Part shown: positions 21,456 to 29,839 of the stretch, in pieces
How the letters are laid out: the number at the start of each line of letters is the position of its first letter
Numbering within the stretch: position 1 is the stretch's first letter
Source of the DNA: Chlamydiales bacterium
GTDB lineage: Bacteria; Chlamydiota; Chlamydiia; Chlamydiales; JAAKFR01
Assembly (NCBI GenBank): GCA_022601635.1
Contig: JAJACG010000009.1
Span: 6,081-70,080, forward strand
Reading direction: 5' to 3'
Length of the DNA: 64,000 bases
The notes under the pieces: model-generated
The model's input: the letters and a program-made list of their open reading frames with translations, nothing else
Database searches by the model: none
Told to the model about the DNA's origin: nothing
Translations under genes and position numbers: made by a program

Positions 21456-22910
21456 TTAATTTACCAAAACATTTTTTTCTACTGTTGCGCTGGCTTTTTG
21501 TAGGATTGTTCTGCAATTGGGGCTGAGGTTTTTGAGGTAAACCTGTTTTTGGAGTTTTTGATATTTAGCCATTGTGGATTGAATGGCTTCGATGGCTGAG
21601 TGATCACAGATTTGGGAATTTCGGAAGTCGAGGTGGACGACTGGGGGGTCATTTTTGATATCGAGCAGTTCTTGAAAAGTTTTGATTGAGCCGAAGAAGA
21701 GTGGTCCATTGAAGCTATAGAGTTTTTGATTATTTTGGGTGGAGATATCGGCTTTGATGTGTTGAGATTTTTTCCATGCGAAGACGAGTGCAGAGGTGAT
21801 GACACCGAGGGCTACGCCGGTTGCTAGGTCGGTAAAGACGGTTATGGTGGAGACGAGGATAAGGACGAAGGCGTCGGATTTGGGGATTTTACGGAGGATT
21901 CGGAGGCTAGACCATTCGAAGGTGCTGATGACGACCATCATCATGACGCCTGTGAGGGCGGCGATGGGGATTTGTTCGATGAGTTTAGAGCTTACTACGA
22001 TGAAGAATAGGAGGAAGAGAGCGGCTGCGATTGAGGAGAGTCTTTTTCTTCCGCCGGATTTGACGTTGATCATACTCTGTCCGATCATAGCGCATCCGCC
22101 CATGCCCCCGAAGAGGCCGGTTATGATATTGGCGAGTCCTTGGGCTGCGCATTCTTTATTCATTTTGCCGCGTGTTTCGGTTATTTCGTCGATTAATTGC
22201 AGTGTCATGAGTGATTCGATGAGTCCTACGGCGGCTAGTGTGAGTGAGTAGGGCAGGATAATTTTTAGGGTTTCTAGGTTGAGGGGAATGATTGGGAGGT
22301 GTGGTGTGGGGAGGCCGCCTTTGATGGAGGCGAGGTCTAGGACGGATTTTGTATCGATGTGGAGTAGTTTTACGATTAGTGTGACTGTGATGATGGCGGC
22401 GAGTGATGAGGGGATAGCTTTGGTGATTTTTGGGAGTATGTAGATGATGGCCATAGTGAGTATGACGAGTGTGAGCATGGTGATGAGCTCAGTGCCATGC
22501 ATCCACTGTCCGTCGACTTTGAAGTGTGCCATTTGAGCTAGGAAGATAACGATGGCGAGTCCATTTACGAATCCGAGCATGACGGGGTATGGAACGACTC
22601 TTGCGAATTTTCCGAGTTTTAGTAGTCCTGCAAGGATTTGGATGATGCCCATGAGTATGACGGCAGCGAAGAGGTATTCGACGCCGTGTGTGGCGACGAG
22701 GGAGACCATGACGACGGCGAGAGCGCCTGTTGCGCCGGAGATCATCCCTGGTCTTCCGCCGAATATGCCTGTGATGAGACATACGAAGAATGCGGCGTAG
22801 AGTCCGACGAGTGGAGAGACGCCTGCAATGAATGCGAAGGCAACAGCTTCAGGGACGAGGGCAAGCGCTACGGTGAGTCCGGAAAGTAAGTCATTCTTGG
22901 ATCTAAACAT
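21456..22910 (-). CDS. SulP-family anion transporter with STAS domain
   Basis: ALALVPEAVAF, GGRPGMISGATG, GGCAMIGQS, GPLFFGS, DHSAIEAI. Confidence 0.9.
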   Translation of the reverse strand: MFRSKNDLLSGLTVALALVPEAVAFAFIAGVSPLVGLYAAFFVCLITGIFGGRPGMISGATGALAVVMVSLVATHGVEYLFAAVILMGIIQILAGLLKLGKFARVVPYPVMLGFVNGLAIVIFLAQMAHFKVDGQWMHGTELITMLTLVILTMAIIYILPKITKAIPSSLAAIITVTLIVKLLHIDTKSVLDLASIKGGLPTPHLPIIPLNLETLKIILPYSLTLAAVGLIESLMTLQLIDEITETRGKMNKECAAQGLANIITGLFGGMGGCAMIGQSMINVKSGGRKRLSSIAAALFLLFFIVVSSKLIEQIPIAALTGVMMMVVISTFEWSSLRILRKIPKSDAFVLILVSTITVFTDLATGVALGVITSALVFAWKKSQHIKADISTQNNQKLYSFNGPLFFGSIKTFQELLDIKNDPPVVHLDFRNSQICDHSAIEAIQSTMAKYQKLQKQVYLKNLSPNCRTILQKASATVEKNVLVN

Positions 22911-22960
22911 AGGCAGAACATACTAGTAGATTTTAGATTAATTAACAAGTGGGAATTGGT

Positions 22961-23030
22961 GGCTCTCGTGATTGCTTTGCAATCAGTGGCACTGTGTGCC
23001 ACAAGGCGGCTGTGCCGCCTTACGAGAGCC
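22961..23030. repeat. Four-way-junction (cloverleaf) palindromic element, copy 1
   Basis: GGCTCTCGT [GATTGC-TTT-GCAATC] A [GTGGCAC-TGT-GTGCCAC] [AAGGCGGC-TGT-GCCGCCTT] ACGAGAGCC; all four stems are perfectly complementary. Confidence 0.9.
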
Positions 23031-23534
23031 CTGTAGAATCTCTACTGCTTCCTCATACGTCTCTTCATGCACTACTCCATCTCCATCGTCAGAATTTGAT
23101 AGATCTATCAAAAAGTAGCGAACTGTTCCGTGATAGAGTGAAACGGCAGTGATAAAATCTTGACCTTTGTGCTTCGGATCAGAGCCATGAATGGCAAGAT
23201 CGAACCTCATTTCAATTGGTTCACTTGAAGCAAAGCAATTTCTATAGACTGGGTTGGTATTAATCATTTCAACGAGCTGATCTGACATGCGAATAATTTG
23301 CTCTCTTCCCTTTTCTACAGTCAAGACTTCATAGGTTTCAAAGGAAGCCTTAAGCACTCGAATATTATCTTTTCCGGCTCCTCCGCCAGTAACCACCACC
23401 GAGAAGTGCTCAGCTTGTTGTTCATCGGTAAATTGAGAAAGGATATCGTCTAAATGATCAGAACAAGTCTTAGGTTGGTGCTTTGCACATCCTGCTAGTA
23501 AAATCAGAAATAATAGTGTTGCTCTTGCTATCAT
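22983..23534 (-). CDS. Lipoprotein, putative immunity protein (copy 2)
   Basis: Lipobox LLAGC; shares TGGGA, SF.TY.VLTV, QD.IT.VSL.HG..RY and ETYEEAVEIL with 23701..24342; ATGA-coupled to the orphan toxin tip. Confidence 0.65.
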   Translation of the reverse strand: MIARATLLFLILLAGCAKHQPKTCSDHLDDILSQFTDEQQAEHFSVVVTGGGAGKDNIRVLKASFETYEVLTVEKGREQIIRMSDQLVEMINTNPVYRNCFASSEPIEMRFDLAIHGSDPKHKGQDFITAVSLYHGTVRYFLIDLSNSDDGDGVVHEETYEEAVEILQGSRKAAQPPCGTQCH

Positions 23535-23692
23535 TTTAAACCATCGATCCTATAGTTATACATACTTGTAATCAATTCACTCTGGTACGTAGGGCTCGTA
23601 ATCGAGTGATCAAAACCTCGCACCGATGGATGGGAATCCAACACCGTTACCGAACCCCTATTCTCCCAAAGACCCGCTCCTCCTATCAACAT
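23531..23692 (-). CDS. Orphan Rhs C-terminal tip cassette (53 aa; below the ORF-track cutoff)
   Basis: MLIGGAGLWENRGSVTVLDSHPSVRGFDHSITSPT-YQSELITSMYNYRIDGLK; residues 3-35 are identical to the Rhs C-terminal segment and the last 18 differ. Confidence 0.7.
   Translation of the reverse strand: MLIGGAGLWENRGSVTVLDSHPSVRGFDHSITSPTYQSELITSMYNYRIDGLK
23592..23687. repeat. 96-bp direct repeat of 24400..24495 (Rhs 3' segment)
   Basis: Identical by eye except one base (GAGTGATCA vs GAGTGGTCA). Confidence 0.92.
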
Positions 23693-23700
23693 AGTGAATC

Positions 23701-24342
23701 TCAATTCACTCCATTGTTCAAATAGTCAAACATAGCATCTTCAAGCGCTGAATGAAGTGTTACAGGGCTCTCGAGCTCGCATTGCGAGCGGTGGCACTGT
23801 GTGCCACAAGGCGGCGTAGCCTCCTTACGAGAGCCCCGTAGAATCTCTACTGCTTCCTCATACGTCTCAAAATGTACATTTTCAGCTGGTTGCACTTCTT
23901 TAGATAGATCCAACCTTGAATACCGAATCCTTCCATGTGAGAGTGAGACCCCTGTAATGTAATCTTGATTCTTATCACAGGGATCAGGTCCGAATATCGA
24001 TAGGCGATATCTATCGACTAGAGCATGCGGATCTGTAAAGCACTCTAGAAATGCTTGATTTGATCGTATGATATCAGTCAAGCTTTCGACTAGCTTGACT
24101 ATCTTTGCTCTTGCGGTGTCGACGGTTAGTACATCATAGGTATCAAATGAGACTGTTACCAGGTATATTTCTTCTTCCGAAGCACCACCTCCTGTGCCAA
24201 CCGCAAACAGATCATTGTCTCGCTCTTTTTTTACAAGGAGATCAACTATCTGATCTAATCGAGTATAGGGATTATCAGGCTTTTCTTTTTGCTGACACGA
24301 TGCCATACAAAAAAGTATCAGTATTCCGATAATGAATCTCAT
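23701..24342 (-). CDS. Lipoprotein, putative cognate immunity protein (copy 1)
   Basis: Lipobox MASC; ATGA overlap with the Rhs stop at 24339-24342; paralog of 22983..23534. Confidence 0.7.
   Translation of the reverse strand: MRFIIGILILFCMASCQQKEKPDNPYTRLDQIVDLLVKKERDNDLFAVGTGGGASEEEIYLVTVSFDTYDVLTVDTARAKIVKLVESLTDIIRSNQAFLECFTDPHALVDRYRLSIFGPDPCDKNQDYITGVSLSHGRIRYSRLDLSKEVQPAENVHFETYEEAVEILRGSRKEATPPCGTQCHRSQCELESPVTLHSALEDAMFDYLNNGVN
23761..23840. repeat. Four-way-junction (cloverleaf) palindromic element, copy 2
   Basis: TACAGGGCTCTCG A [GCTCGC-ATT-GCGAGC] G [GTGGCAC-TGT-GTGCCAC] [AAGGCGGC-GTA-GCCTCCTT] A CGAGAGCCCCGTA. Confidence 0.88.
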
Positions 24343-27300
24343 TTTATGCCTCTGCTCAAGTAGTCAAACATATCATCTTCAAGTCGCTTTTCAAAAGTGG
24401 GGCTCGTAATCGAGTGGTCAAAACCTCGCACCGATGGATGGGAATCCAACACCGTTACCGAACCCCTATTCTCCCAAAGACCCGCTCCTCCTATCCAAGG
24501 TATCGGATCGCGATGCGGTTTGGCCACATAATTTGTTGCACTATGACACAAATTTCTCGTAATTGGCGTCGCAGGTGCAAAAGCCGCTGTTGTAATACGA
24601 TTGCGTAAATCATCAGGCAATCTCTGCAAGGCCGCCTTGCCCTGCATCGCACCCTCACTATGTGGAATATACATCAACGTCGATCCCGCACTGCTCAGCA
24701 AACCCTCCATCGCCCCCTTCGCAACTCCCACCTGACTAAACTCACGACCCCCAACCCTCTCCAATACTACCCGTGCAAAATCACGCAGCCCACTCGACTT
24801 GTTCTCAATCATATGCACATTGTAACCACCACTTAAACGCGATAAATGCAATGCATTCTGAGTGCGAACAGCATCACTATTCCTCATCCCATTATGATAG
24901 AGAAAACTACGACCCGGTGGCATCTCTTTCACTGGATAACCCATACTCCTCAAATCAGTCACTCCTCCCACTTGTGGATTCACCCAACTCTCAGGCACCC
25001 TCGACATCAACTGCTTAGTCATATACCCAGCCGGCGTATAACCCCACATGCGACTCAATAAGCTCTGGTCCGCTAAACCATACAGATCAATATGATGCGG
25101 ATTTCCATGCACATAACCATATCTGTTCGGGCCATCATGATACCCCTCAGGATCAGGCGTCAACCAACGACCCAACTCCGGAATATAATAACGCCTCCCA
25201 AAATAGATCAAACCCGTCTCAGGATCACTCCTCTTGGAACAAAAACGCCAAGATCCATCTGTATCCCCTACACCAAATGCATCATAATCAAAACTTTGTC
25301 TCTTTTTGGAGTTAAGAAGAGTACGCACAGAGCCGCGATGATCATGCAGCGGAACAAATACCTTGTCCCCCCTCTCTATCAGCACCGCTGCCCCAATCTC
25401 AGCACCCAATCCCTCACCCAAAATGCGCAATTCATTTATCACAAGCTCATTATGAATGCAGTAGTCATGTTTCTTCGGTGTAAACCGACCAATCTCATTC
25501 TGACCATCCCACAAGAAATAACTCTTAGCCCCCTTCACATTCTTCCACAAACGACGATGAAAATTGTCATAGCCATACTGCGCAGAGGGAACCCCCACTA
25601 ATCTATTCTGCGAATCATAAACAAATCCGTGAAGCAGCATGTTCCCATTTGCATCATACTCATAAGAAGAGAGCTGCCCCAACTCATCCACCTCATAATC
25701 CGCACTCAACCTGTTCGATAATGAATCATGACAGTAATGCTTTTTATCCTCCTCAATCAACTGATCCAAGCTATCATACCGATACCGACGACTATTCTCA
25801 GAAAGTACGTTGCCACTTGCATCATAACTATATCTCAAATCTAGCGAAGGGGCCGAAATATGGAGCGGCCTGCCCAATGCATCGCGCTCAATCTCTAAAC
25901 GGCCAAAACCATGCATCAGATGACAGCCCGTTATCAATCCATCCTCAGCACGCTCATATATATGCTTCTGACCATTGCGCGTTACCGACTTCAAATAAGC
26001 CCCCATATAAGTATAGGTAACCTCACTCTTGTCCGGTAAAATTAACTTTGTGCGCTGACCATCACTATTATATGACGATCTAAAACAGGCACCATTGCCC
26101 AAACACTCCTCAACCATCTCACCATGCACATTAAAGCTGCGCTTCGTCTTCATACCCAAGCAGCGATCCTCCACCAGAGTCATATTGTCCGCAGCATCAT
26201 AGCTGTAGTTATAGTCAAAATCAGCGCCGCGGTAACGTGATACCCGACCAAATTCATCATATTCATAGTGGTGAAGATCCCCTGAGGGTAACTCCACTCT
26301 TTGTAAACGGCCCATTTTGTCATATGACCTAGATGTTCTACGCCTGCCAGCCTCAAGCAACCACTCCACTCGATCGCCTGGACCATAGCCATACTCATGA
26401 CAGACAGCGCCGCGAGATCTACCATTCACATAGATCGAATCCTCACGCCTCACACAGTTACCCCTTCCATCATACGCCTTCTTTGTCATGGAACATTTGC
26501 GCCCAGATGGATCGGTCTTATAAATCAAAGAGACTCTATCGCAGCTGTCATACTCCATATGCGTCGTCACACCAGAGGGAAGCCTCTTTGCCACAAGCAA
26601 GCCATTGCGATAGCTACTCTCAGTGCACTGACCCAACTGGTCCACCTCCATAATCAACTGCCCCTGACCATTGTAAAAACGCTCAAAAATCCCCCTCGAA
26701 CTCTCCTCCCATATCAAACGCCCACACTCATCAAATCGATAGCTCACCTCATTCCAAGCTCGATCATGCGCCACCCTCTTCTTTCTCACGACTCGATCTA
26801 AATTGTCATACTCAAAAACATAGACAGAGTCCCCAGCAACCCTGTGCGAAAGACGACCACGCGCATCATAGTAGAAAAAGGCGCGCCTCCCCCCCTTAGT
26901 TTCCTCAACTTTCTGCCCCAAGATGTTATAAACATAACTGCTCTTTATACCACTAAACTCCTCCTCCTCAATCAAGAGAGGACCCTCATAAACAGCATGA
27001 TAGCGCCGATCACCCTGACTCTTGGAAATCAGCTGGTCACAAATATTGTAACTGTAAGTTGTCTCCATACCATGACGATCCGTTGAGGAAATCAAACGAC
27101 CATACTCATCATATACAAAGCTTTCACATCCACCATCTGGATGCTTTACCTCAACTGGTAATGAACGCTCATTATACTCTGTAGAAGTAACAAACCCATT
27201 GCGATCACGACGCTTCACTACATTGCCCAATGGATCATATTCTAAACTCTCAAACGTACCATCAGCGTAGTCAGTCCGAAATAGACGCCCCGAAGCGTCA

Positions 27301-29336
27301 TAGCTATACAACTCCTTATAACCACTTGGCTTCGTCATACTAATCAACTGACCAGCAGGATTATAGCTTTTATAGGTCACTAAATCTCCATCATGCACCT
27401 CAATCGGCCTATTCGCAGCATCATAAATTGTGATAATTTGCTGATTACCCAGCACCTTCTCAATTTGATTGCCTCGATCATCATAGCTGTAACGCGTCTC
27501 ATTACCCTCAGCATCAATAGTAAGAATCAGGTTTTCCTTCTCATCATACTCATTCGATATGGTGTAGCATAAAGAGCCATGGGCATCATAGTGCCGTTCA
27601 CTGGAAATTTTGCCGGCTGGTGTGTACAAGTAGACTCTTTTCTGGATCAGACTTTCCTCTTCATCAAACTCCTCAACAACCTCAGGTAAACCGTAATTTG
27701 GGAGTGTGCGCCGCGGCTGAATCTTTTTGATGCGTCTATGTTTCCCGTCAAAATGCTCCGTACGAATCAAACAAGCCGCATAATCATATCTGTTTTTGGT
27801 CCAACTCAACTCCTTTGCTCCATCAAACAGCGCCTCATAGGTAATGAGGTCACGGTTATCCTCATACTCATAGATAGTGCGCTTTGCTCCCTCACGCCTC
27901 TCAATGATGCGGTTGTTATCATCAAACTCGCGAAAAATCGTTGTCCCAGCAAAGCTCTCTTCAATACGGTTGTGATGCACATCATATTTATAGGTTGTCT
28001 TTGAAAGCTCACACCCACCTTTGTCACAAATACTCTTAGAAAGAAGATCTCCAAGCTCACTCCACTTACTCTTGTGAATGGCATCAGCTGTTTCGACCTC
28101 ATAGACGCGCTTGTTCTTGTCATAACGGTAGATCGTATGATTGCCAGCTCCATCTGTCACAACTGTATAGCCATGCCCATAAACATAGCTCGCTACAATC
28201 ATATCACCAGGACCATAGATTCTTTCAACACGACGCCCCGCTCCATATTCAATGCGAATAGGCATGCCATCTTCCGTCACAGAGCGCTCCAAAAGAGCAT
28301 ACTTCTTGTAATGAGCTAGCTTTTTCTGCGGCTTTAAGCCCTTTTTGTTCTTCCAGCCATATTGATAGCTCTGATCTGCACCATCTGGACGTTCAACAGA
28401 AGAGAGTAGAAGATCAAAGATATAGGGATGCTTTCTCTTGCTATTCTTCTCAATCACTGTGCGCAATTCCAGCTCATAGCTAGCTATTCTTCCATCGCTG
28501 CCAGAAATCACAACCTGCTTCGAAATGTGATTGTTCTTTGGTCCCATTCTTTTGGGATATTTGATGCTGATTTCACCAAGCTTAACTCGCATCGAACTAT
28601 CAACCGCTACAATGTGTGAAAGAACATAATAGGCTGGATCAGATGTATGGTTATGCGCATAGTCCAAGTATTGGTAGAAAAGGTAATTTCCATTAGGCAA
28701 TCTCTCCCTTTTTACCTTGGCCATAAATGGCGGCGGCAGTCTCGTCTGCATCGCACGTGCAATTGGATCCACTTCAATTGCAGGCCACGCTTTATACTCA
28801 CTCTCATAGCTAATTTTAGTGCCATCACCTCTTTTGATCTCGCCAGAAAAGATGAAATAGGGCTCTGGACTACTCCTGTCCCACTCCACAACAGTGTTGG
28901 CAGGATGCCTTCCCCCACTGATCTCTCTATGCACATAACTCTTTGCATCTAGGAGTTCTATCCGATCGTTTTTCTTCCAATGCTCGAAGCGGTAAAAGCC
29001 ACCATCAGCAGTTCCATGGCCTACGAAGGGTTCAATCTCTGAAGAACAGAGACTAAATAGTACAAGCGATTCAGGATTCACGCTCCAGTGGCCATTTGCT
29101 AAATCACCATCACAAAAATGGCCATAGAAGCGCCTATATGAAATTGGCTGTACACCCGAAACAACCAGGTCGGTCTGCACTTCGCAATACTCACCTGTAA
29201 TCGGATTCACATTGAAAGGAAGCGCTGTGCGAAAATCGGCATCCGTCCGCCTCATGTAAGTCTCATTGTTGGAATAGAGCGAAACATCATTTGCGGAGAA
29301 AAGCGGAAGAGAGAGTAGTAGGAAAAATATAAACAT
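24339..29336 (-). CDS. Rhs/YD-repeat polymorphic toxin with Sec-type signal peptide and alpha/beta-hydrolase-like C-terminal domain
   Basis: VNPITGEY (DUF6531-like), many YD repeats, Rhs core SDPETGLIYFGRRYYIPELGRWLTPDP...NRYGYVHGNP..IDLYGL; tip has PHSEGA, DPIP and DHS. Confidence 0.9.
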   Translation of the reverse strand: MFIFFLLLSLPLFSANDVSLYSNNETYMRRTDADFRTALPFNVNPITGEYCEVQTDLVVSGVQPISYRRFYGHFCDGDLANGHWSVNPESLVLFSLCSSEIEPFVGHGTADGGFYRFEHWKKNDRIELLDAKSYVHREISGGRHPANTVVEWDRSSPEPYFIFSGEIKRGDGTKISYESEYKAWPAIEVDPIARAMQTRLPPPFMAKVKRERLPNGNYLFYQYLDYAHNHTSDPAYYVLSHIVAVDSSMRVKLGEISIKYPKRMGPKNNHISKQVVISGSDGRIASYELELRTVIEKNSKRKHPYIFDLLLSSVERPDGADQSYQYGWKNKKGLKPQKKLAHYKKYALLERSVTEDGMPIRIEYGAGRRVERIYGPGDMIVASYVYGHGYTVVTDGAGNHTIYRYDKNKRVYEVETADAIHKSKWSELGDLLSKSICDKGGCELSKTTYKYDVHHNRIEESFAGTTIFREFDDNNRIIERREGAKRTIYEYEDNRDLITYEALFDGAKELSWTKNRYDYAACLIRTEHFDGKHRRIKKIQPRRTLPNYGLPEVVEEFDEEESLIQKRVYLYTPAGKISSERHYDAHGSLCYTISNEYDEKENLILTIDAEGNETRYSYDDRGNQIEKVLGNQQIITIYDAANRPIEVHDGDLVTYKSYNPAGQLISMTKPSGYKELYSYDASGRLFRTDYADGTFESLEYDPLGNVVKRRDRNGFVTSTEYNERSLPVEVKHPDGGCESFVYDEYGRLISSTDRHGMETTYSYNICDQLISKSQGDRRYHAVYEGPLLIEEEEFSGIKSSYVYNILGQKVEETKGGRRAFFYYDARGRLSHRVAGDSVYVFEYDNLDRVVRKKRVAHDRAWNEVSYRFDECGRLIWEESSRGIFERFYNGQGQLIMEVDQLGQCTESSYRNGLLVAKRLPSGVTTHMEYDSCDRVSLIYKTDPSGRKCSMTKKAYDGRGNCVRREDSIYVNGRSRGAVCHEYGYGPGDRVEWLLEAGRRRTSRSYDKMGRLQRVELPSGDLHHYEYDEFGRVSRYRGADFDYNYSYDAADNMTLVEDRCLGMKTKRSFNVHGEMVEECLGNGACFRSSYNSDGQRTKLILPDKSEVTYTYMGAYLKSVTRNGQKHIYERAEDGLITGCHLMHGFGRLEIERDALGRPLHISAPSLDLRYSYDASGNVLSENSRRYRYDSLDQLIEEDKKHYCHDSLSNRLSADYEVDELGQLSSYEYDANGNMLLHGFVYDSQNRLVGVPSAQYGYDNFHRRLWKNVKGAKSYFLWDGQNEIGRFTPKKHDYCIHNELVINELRILGEGLGAEIGAAVLIERGDKVFVPLHDHRGSVRTLLNSKKRQSFDYDAFGVGDTDGSWRFCSKRSDPETGLIYFGRRYYIPELGRWLTPDPEGYHDGPNRYGYVHGNPHHIDLYGLADQSLLSRMWGYTPAGYMTKQLMSRVPESWVNPQVGGVTDLRSMGYPVKEMPPGRSFLYHNGMRNSDAVRTQNALHLSRLSGGYNVHMIENKSSGLRDFARVVLERVGGREFSQVGVAKGAMEGLLSSAGSTLMYIPHSEGAMQGKAALQRLPDDLRNRITTAAFAPATPITRNLCHSATNYVAKPHRDPIPWIGGAGLWENRGSVTVLDSHPSVRGFDHSITSPTFEKRLEDDMFDYLSRGIK

Positions 29337-29407: not shown

Positions 29408-29839
29408 CTTAGGAGATACTGAACATCTACCGTTTGGCAGATTTTGCCAGAATTTTCGATTCGGCAAAAGATGCCGGACGGGAGTTAATCAGTGGCTTCC
29501 TTAGGAGACATTGAATAAGTACCTTGCCAGAGATTTTGGCAAGATTTCTATCGAGGGGAGGTTCGGAGCCGAACGTCTAACCCCTTGCGGGTTAGTCAAG
29601 GCGAGAACGATGCCTCGATAGAAAGATTGACGGAAGATCTGGGAAGGGAGTTGTTTAGTGGCTCCCTTAGGAGACACTGATTAACTCGGTTATTGGAGAT
29701 TCTGCCAAGATTTGAGACGCTGGGAAATTCGGAGCCTGAAGCTAACCCCTTGAGGGTTAGTGAAGGCGAGAATGATGCAGCGGCGCGAAGATTAGCGGAA
29801 GATTCAATGAGCGAGTTATTCAGTGTCTCCCTTAGGAGA
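29408..29839 (+). repeat. Tandem array of three rod-like hairpin units (88, 162 and 161 nt) separated by CTTA; candidate structured RNA
   Basis: CTTAGGAGA at 29408, 29500, 29666 and 29831. Units 29412-29499, 29504-29665 and 29670-29830 have 18-nt imperfect terminal inverted repeats and covarying internal stems. Confidence 0.85.

Follow-up and report, generated by a model that had tools for sequence, protein, structure and literature searches.

A single-locus nested palindrome at the ends of two putative immunity genes in a chlamydial Rhs locus

In the orphan toxin-immunity arrays of Rhs and CdiA loci, C-terminal toxins are displaced through blocks of homology. The window analyzed here, a 64,000-nucleotide stretch of a Chlamydiales bacterium genome (assembly GCA_022601635.1, contig JAJACG010000009.1, positions 6,081 to 70,080), contains a locus of this kind, in which an Rhs gene is followed by two lipoprotein genes, termed imm1 and imm2, each overlapping at its 3' end a copy of the same nested palindrome: a closing stem that encloses three short hairpin arms. 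As in the described arrays, the main Rhs gene and an immunity gene are followed by a toxin-tip fragment with a second immunity gene, and near-identical short blocks flank the variable parts, allowing homologous exchange. YD repeats and an Rhs-associated core precede the variable C-terminal domain, the tip fragment is homologous to the main gene (blocks X and X' below, 98% identical over 99 nt), and a small paralogue follows each. Unlike in those arrays, the downstream block of this locus terminates, within the immunity gene, in a nested palindrome with perfect stems.

Several described types of palindromic DNA resemble the element in part, but none of the described families includes it; among bacterial palindromic sequences it is an unusual variant, found in the polymorphic-toxin locus of one genome so far. 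REP/BIME with RAYT are hundreds of dispersed, extragenic, single-helix palindromes served by a Y1 (HUH) transposase. Like them, the element is a GC-rich hairpin palindrome at a gene 3' end that could protect upstream mRNA, whereas it has two copies, both in open reading frames (ORFs), four helices, and no Y1/HUH gene in its genome. Rickettsia palindromic elements (RPE) are dispersed palindromic DNA inserted in frame in coding genes. The element is likewise an in-frame palindrome, and its peptide falls beyond the part of the protein fold that is predicted with confidence (of the best 150 family representatives, the remaining 148 lack this tail), but it is shorter, has no dispersed family, sits at the extreme C-terminus and supplies a stop codon. 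With MITEs it shares terminal inverted repeats, in the form of a 9-bp closing stem, but it lacks a target-site duplication and exists as two copies only, within a larger duplicated block.

attC sites carry RYYYAAC/GTTRRRY core sites and form a single imperfect hairpin with extrahelical bases, adjacent to an integron integrase. Both they and the element are structured sites after a cassette ORF, proposed to act as folded single-stranded DNA. The element differs in being a perfect-stem four-way junction with no R'/R'' boxes, extrahelical bases or bulges; its genome has no integron integrase (PF00589 matches lie on contigs C1 and C28 only), and only two of nine genes of the immunity-like family carry it. 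With intrinsic terminators the element shares GC-rich hairpins but not the U-tract. The inverted terminal repeats of parvoviruses are T-shaped hairpins with two small inner palindromes inside an outer palindrome; they share inner palindromes with 3-nt loops and are structural look-alikes only, whereas the element is chromosomal and internal, has three inner arms, and comes with no HUH protein, as judged from a search that covered the Y1_Tnp family only.

Structure and distribution of the palindrome

The two copies are built as follows.

22961-23030: palindrome copy 1, a 9-bp closing stem with arms of 6, 7 and 8 bp and three 3-nt loops (from sequence and folding)
22961-22969 / 23022-23030: closing stem of copy 1, 9 bp
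22970-22975 / 22979-22984: 6-bp arm of copy 1
22986-22992 / 22996-23002: 7-bp arm of copy 1
23003-23010 / 23014-23021: 8-bp arm of copy 1
23765-23836: palindrome copy 2, with the topology of copy 1 (from sequence, folding and alignment)
23765-23773 / 23828-23836: closing stem of copy 2; three extra pairs lengthen the copy to 23761-23840

In copy 1, every stem is perfect, each 3-nt loop is closed by C..G, and at most one base is unpaired between neighboring helices. Copy 2 has one mismatch in the 8-bp arm and has also lost the innermost closing pair of copy 1, and in the 6-bp arm two pairs are doubly compensated between the copies. Minimum free energy folding yields a four-way junction on both strands of both copies, as DNA (-29 to -31.6 kcal/mol, z -6.2 to -10.0) and as RNA (-47 to -52 kcal/mol, z -5.6 to -9.3), and 0 of 200 shuffles fold as well as the element in each DNA, RNA and strand case. 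Sequence, alignment and folds thus agree with the first-pass annotation, made from the letters alone, on the anatomy of copy 1, the shared topology of copy 2 and its compensated 6-bp arm.

The genome of 1.64 Mb holds 701 perfect triloop hairpins with stems of at least 6 bp, and these form only three adjacent clusters: copy 1 forms the sole triple in the genome, and copy 2 accounts for one double. Five block-shuffled genomes contained 0, 0, 0, 2 and 0 doubles and no triples. The structure, GC-rich in a genome of 47% GC, is therefore real and far beyond chance. Nor is it an assembly artefact, as both copies are reproduced with 0 differences in contigs of three DNA runs of one study, which are labelled sponge metagenome and may include data behind the genome assembly.

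Signatures of known structured elements were sought and not found, in agreement with the earlier reading for tRNA loops, attC boxes and a U-tract. ARAGORN predicts 0 tRNA genes in the element, and an Rfam search gives 0 matches at E up to 1. Neither copy contains GTTRRRY/RYYYAAC boxes and no direct repeat or target-site duplication stands beside either, on reading of the sequence; no T-run follows the stem, and a scan of the minus strand from 22400 to 24700 detects no terminator-like site.

The element is a single-locus nested palindrome and belongs to no repeat family that could be found. BLAST of the 97.7%-complete genome returned no copy beyond these two. A covariance model built from the pair matched only those two in the genome. 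It had no match among 60 relatives, nor among 149 more genomes drawn from the phylum (one further genome went unscored), so that the scan proposed earlier, of this genome and other Chlamydiae, gave no further copies at Rhs/immunity boundaries. Metagenome and genome contigs contained no match to a DNA pattern of the two best-conserved arms in which the loops were left free, and a closing-stem pattern retrieved 75 metagenome stretches (37 distinct), none of which folds to the three-arm layout (best score 22.5 bits). No copy was found by blastn against phage and plasmid collections; a protein-pattern scan of genome contigs gave 67 pattern matches, none confirmed, and a word-based protein search recovered the query itself only. 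Among the papers listed by a literature search on palindromic elements in Rhs orphan-immunity loci, no title or abstract opening describes such an element, in line with the earlier statement that no element of this layout was known in Rhs loci.

The duplicated cassette and the immunity-like family

All relevant genes of the locus are on the minus strand. Downstream of the Rhs gene the order is imm1, a 57-aa orphan ORF and imm2, followed by a gene for a SulP-family transporter.

24339-29336, minus strand: Rhs/YD-repeat protein, 1665 aa (NCBIfam TIGR01643, NF041261, TIGR03696)
23701-24342, minus strand: imm1, lipoprotein of 213 aa, 43% identical to imm2 at the protein level
22983-23534, minus strand: imm2, immunity-like lipoprotein of 183 aa; residues 168-183 are the palindrome-encoded tail
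23531-23704, minus strand: orphan chimeric ORF, 57 aa, with an immunity-gene start (MRF), block X' and an alternative toxin tail
23691-23745, minus strand: remnant toxin end/immunity-gene start junction, a repeat of 24329-24383 (82% identity)
24397-24499, minus strand: block X, in the main Rhs toxin domain, coding for ...IGGAGLWENRG...DHSITSPT; upstream homology arm of the cassette
23589-23691, minus strand: block X', the orphan copy of X
22961-23063, minus strand: 3' junction block Y, copy 1, with 33 nt coding for ETYEEAVEILQ and then the palindrome
23766-23868, minus strand: 3' junction block Y, copy 2 (from repeat and unit alignment)

The cassette occurs as two tandem units of ~806 nt behind one Rhs gene, each running from block X through a variable toxin tail and a variable immunity-gene body to block Y. 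Between X and Y, ~520 nt (alternative toxin tail plus immunity-gene body) are only ~50% identical at the nucleotide level, whereas a repeat search joins the block Y copies over 112 nt at 86% identity. Within block Y, the 33-nt non-palindromic flank is identical at 32 of 33 positions, 31 of them consecutive and all synonymous positions included; in the same flank stretch, 5 of 28 positions differ in the closest other paralogue (contigs C8 and C30). A near-identical flank inside genes otherwise saturated with change points to a recent duplication or gene conversion of the cassette end. The palindrome itself differs at 11 of 70 positions between the copies, against 1 of 33 in the flank, and in both copies the similarity runs out no more than one or two bases from the closing stem.

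Because both palindromes sit in a block of ~103 nt that includes 33 non-palindromic bases, the alignment shows them to be copies of one another, by what would be a segmental duplication or gene conversion of the cassette end, and not products of transposition or site-specific capture. The data also support the placement of the element at the distal edge of a repeated toxin-tail/immunity module; of the earlier view of the palindromes as module-boundary marks, this position stands, while the capture or recombination role attached to it is unsupported.

Copy 1 contains the stop codon of imm2 (22983-22985, minus strand). Copy 2 lies wholly inside the imm1 frame, which reads through it and continues in what is left of a toxin C-terminal tail, still in frame (...LEDAMFDYLNNGVN); from shared Ser-Pro codons onward, this reading parallels the Rhs tail. 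The string TTACGAG(N0-2)CCC occurs four times in the genome, and each occurrence falls in a conserved block of this locus: one at the distal end of X, one at that of X', and one in each palindrome, in the closing-stem half beside the 33-nt flank. A shorter CGAG(AG)CC recurs at the distal end of each palindrome. Together, the imm1 read-through and the chimeric ORF (23531-23760) are the marks that two or more deletions or recombinations have left in the array.

Both copies overlap the 3' ends of minus-strand lipoprotein genes and encode GSRK.A.PPCGTQCH, with the stop codon in copy 1 and read-through in copy 2, just as first described. A profile of imm1 and imm2 detects members of this lipoprotein family in 20 of 29 genomes belonging to the bacterial family; nine of the matches are in this genome. 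Only two of these nine carry the palindrome, the other seven having no covariance-model match, so that the earlier description of an element closing each immunity-like gene holds for imm1 and imm2 but not for the family. Among 1.84 billion proteins, the family has 535 representatives at E ≤0.001; those listed are mostly lipoproteins of ~160-190 aa that end from a few to ~15 residues past a HEET(F/Y)EEA..I helix, and among the best 150 of the 535, the tail motifs are present in only the window's own two proteins.

The AlphaFold2 model of imm2 (51-row alignment) has a predicted local distance difference test (pLDDT) score of 92.6. Its fold ends at the helix of residues 160-167, and the palindrome-encoded residues 168-183 are modelled as coil, with pLDDT falling from 74 to 52. 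Since homologues end just past the last helix, the element adds a coil tail of low confidence, and the alignment and model together indicate that the palindrome is a lineage-specific add-on to the gene end that the protein probably tolerates.

No Pfam or NCBIfam model matched the immunity-like family, and the imm2 model had no Foldseek match in the PDB at E 0.001 or better; the lipoproteins look like an undescribed, putative immunity family. The same family follows a related Rhs C-terminal domain in another genome (G005), and from gene order and family distribution imm1 and imm2 are putative immunity genes. A genome of the same genus encodes four tandem family genes with ordinary ends and no palindrome, and the same-genus Rhs locus has other flanks and no SulP neighbor. 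Related arrays of the family, whether from this genome or from its genus, are also mosaics, but they lack the palindrome. On contig C12 (1-3600), a second array of five immunity-family genes interspersed with an orphan toxin tip is a mosaic of blocks of 70-95% identity, again with no palindrome. Contigs C8 (1-245) and C30 (2-246) end inside another immunity paralogue, whose copies are 88.6% identical over 245 nt; as the assembly breaks at this family, copy number may be undercounted.

Origin of the palindrome and its possible roles

The reading we favor, with a probability of roughly 0.4, is that of a nested quasipalindrome at the DNA level, locally born or acquired once, which lies in the 3' junction block of the cassette and was copied along with it; template switching, selection or both would maintain its pairing, and it would mark a fragile unit end. 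The palindrome would have arisen in place, or arrived once, through fold-back or template-switch copying of DNA, a process that would give perfect, minimal-loop stems on both strands. Hairpin-templated repair, with or without selection, may then have preserved the stem pairs as the loops diverged. The main consequence of the palindrome would be mechanical, namely a cassette end prone to hairpins, breaks and slippage, and such fragility would account for the loss of homology between the copies where the closing stem begins. A short CGAG(AG)CC microhomology, which the end of block X also has, may be where the joint after copy 2 formed. The process would require no dedicated enzyme.

Comparison of the two copies supports the view that pairing was kept while loops changed. 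In the alignment, 58 of 60 paired cells form standard pairs, two pairs have changed on both sides and two cells are broken; all pairs are Watson-Crick, with no G-T/G-U pair among the 58. Half of the unpaired columns (5 of 10) have changed, against 6 of 60 in the stems (Fisher p=0.006), and the probability that 11 random substitutions break no more than two pairs is 0.002. Template switching during replication is reported to make perfect stems and, without selection, multibase compensatory changes (Monttinen and Loytynoja 2022, PMC8794818). With two copies, it accounts for the preserved pairing as well as selection does. The quasipalindromes described in that study share with the element perfect Watson-Crick, short-loop stems on both strands, multibase compensatory differences and a palindrome that changes faster than its flank; they differ in that four stems are nested here in a four-way junction within 70 nt, and single events are not reconstructable from the two copies. 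The first-pass annotation held that the fold rather than the sequence is conserved. Pairing was indeed kept and the loops did change, but this is weak evidence for such conservation because the two copies are recent duplicates and not independent. Inversion of the loop (spacer) as a footprint of template switching was considered and rejected, as the loops of the two copies are not reverse complements.

Several points weigh against the favored reading. At least two compensated pairs would arise from 11 random substitutions with a probability of only 0.029, and a covariation shuffle control is uninformative for a two-row alignment, in which 111 of 500 shuffles do as well as the observed pair. 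To build four nested perfect stems within 70 nt would take several fold-backs, which is improbable without selection or an imported element, and selection on a functional RNA or DNA structure fits the preserved pairing equally well. A search for an empty site found a best relative of only 42% identity and no near-orthologous empty site, and the alignment to the tail of the closest paralogue (C8/C30) is ambiguous. The microhomology suggested for the joint after copy 2 was seen after the fact and is graded a hint only. A role at the transcript level is also possible, because no strong hairpin other than the element stands between imm2 and the SulP gene, and because GC-rich hairpins without a T-tract are common at gene ends in this genome.

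That role would be a transcript 3'-end structure on the minus-strand mRNA, either a terminator without a U-tract or a REP-like barrier to 3' exonucleases, insulating or stabilizing each immunity cistron; we consider it unlikely, although it merits serious weight. The element lies on the sense strand at the 3' end of both immunity genes, with conserved stems and variable loops, and no other terminator-like site precedes the SulP gene on the minus strand. The RNA folds are very stable, as only 3 of 867 long-ORF ends in the genome fold at -44 kcal/mol or lower. The missing U-tract is not unusual here, because, by a crude count of the T residues in the 9 nt that follow the stem, 37 of the 67 GC-rich perfect hairpins near long-ORF stops have no more than two and only 13 have five or more. 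Most terminators of this organism thus seem not to be of the canonical U-tract kind. However, ribosomes must melt the structure, as translation of imm2 ends only within copy 1 and the whole of copy 2 is coding sequence. The 58 paired cells contain no G-U pair, and folding shows no strand asymmetry. All three arms have 3-nt loops, compared with 20 of 139 gene-end hairpins in the genome; the design was seen nowhere else in the genome or the relatives searched, and same-family gene arrays in related genomes manage without it. The sole strong hairpin before the next gene, the genome-wide scarcity of T-tracts and the rank among 867 gene ends lean toward the RNA level, whereas the absence of G-U pairs and strand asymmetry, the triloops, the translation through the element, its restriction to one locus and the faster change of the palindrome relative to its flank lean toward DNA.

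An improbable origin is a relic, or very low-copy member, of a mobile palindromic family of the MITE or RPE type, which would have landed in frame in one immunity gene and been duplicated with it. The in-frame addition relative to the protein family, the GC-rich composition in a 47% GC genome and the resemblance of the 9-bp closing stem to a transposon terminal inverted repeat fit this idea, but neither copy has a target-site duplication, no collection searched contains a further copy, the resident ~165-nt repeats are not similar, and block duplication accounts for the second copy. Of the in-frame RPE-like insertion once suggested, the in-frame addition to the family is retained and a dispersed multi-copy family is not. 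The REP-like alternative fails on two copies, both coding, in a genome without a Y1/HUH transposase.

Still less probable is a structure-specific recombination signal, in which folded single-stranded DNA or an extruded junction would be read by a host Xer-type recombinase or resolvase to set the points of cassette capture and exchange. Homology between copies does end exactly where the closing stem begins, the locus shows clear rearrangement (chimeric orphan ORF, nested repeats), and perfect minimal-loop hairpins on both strands suit single-stranded DNA, but the conserved block runs 33 nt past the structure on the other side. The genome encodes two tyrosine recombinases (PF00589), on contigs C1 and C28, while the locus is on C33; it has 0 matches to the Y1/HUH transposase family (PF01797) and no match to reverse transcriptase. 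Among 10 neighboring ORFs scanned, none belongs to a recombinase or transposase family, seven being housekeeping or metabolic and three without a family. No rearranged forms or joints appear in the contigs of the three DNA runs, which is weak evidence, as contigs break at repeats and neither confirm nor exclude variants. Only two of nine family genes carry the element, and other arrays, here and in relatives, lack it. The folded capture site of the first-pass annotation is not supported, and the co-occurring tyrosine recombinase or HUH nuclease that the annotation proposed to look for was not found at the locus. Least probable of all is the more specific version in which the palindrome is cut or exchanged by a general host enzyme (Xer or a junction resolvase) and, together with block X, delimits a swappable or deletable unit, resembling integron cassettes without an integrase of their own. 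A sigma-54 promoter in the 7-bp arm (TGGCAC...GC) is dismissed on its GG-to-GC spacing of 10 nt instead of the consensus 12, and a tRNA-like substrate on the presence of ACCA after copy 1 but not copy 2, together with the negative ARAGORN and Rfam results.

If it were a recognized signal, the element would represent a new way to delimit and exchange toxin-immunity cassettes in obligate symbionts, which the evidence does not favor. If it is only a mark of duplication, it would still be a natural example of fold-back copying that builds and maintains perfect multi-arm hairpins inside a gene. In that case, a pair of copies may differ by 'compensatory' changes without any selection on the fold, a useful caution for structure-based scans.

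Neighboring repeats and the toxin domain

Just upstream of the Rhs gene start, the interval 29468-29839 contains two tandem units of ~165 nt with hairpins. Kinship between these repeats and the palindrome was rejected, as the shared stretches of 7-10 nt are attributable to chance.

The Rhs protein matches TIGR01643 (YD repeats, 3.8e-44) and, at residues 1351-1416, the Rhs-associated core TIGR03696, after which follows a C-terminal toxin domain of ~249 aa. Neither a sequence search of the PDB (E up to 1) nor one of Pfam families (E up to 0.1) gave a match to this domain. Within it (24339-25160), an HSEGA motif aligns with TSGGA of the G005 tip and with HSQGA of the contig C12 tip. This suggests a toxin of the serine hydrolase or lipase type, which would fit immunity conferred by periplasmic lipoproteins.

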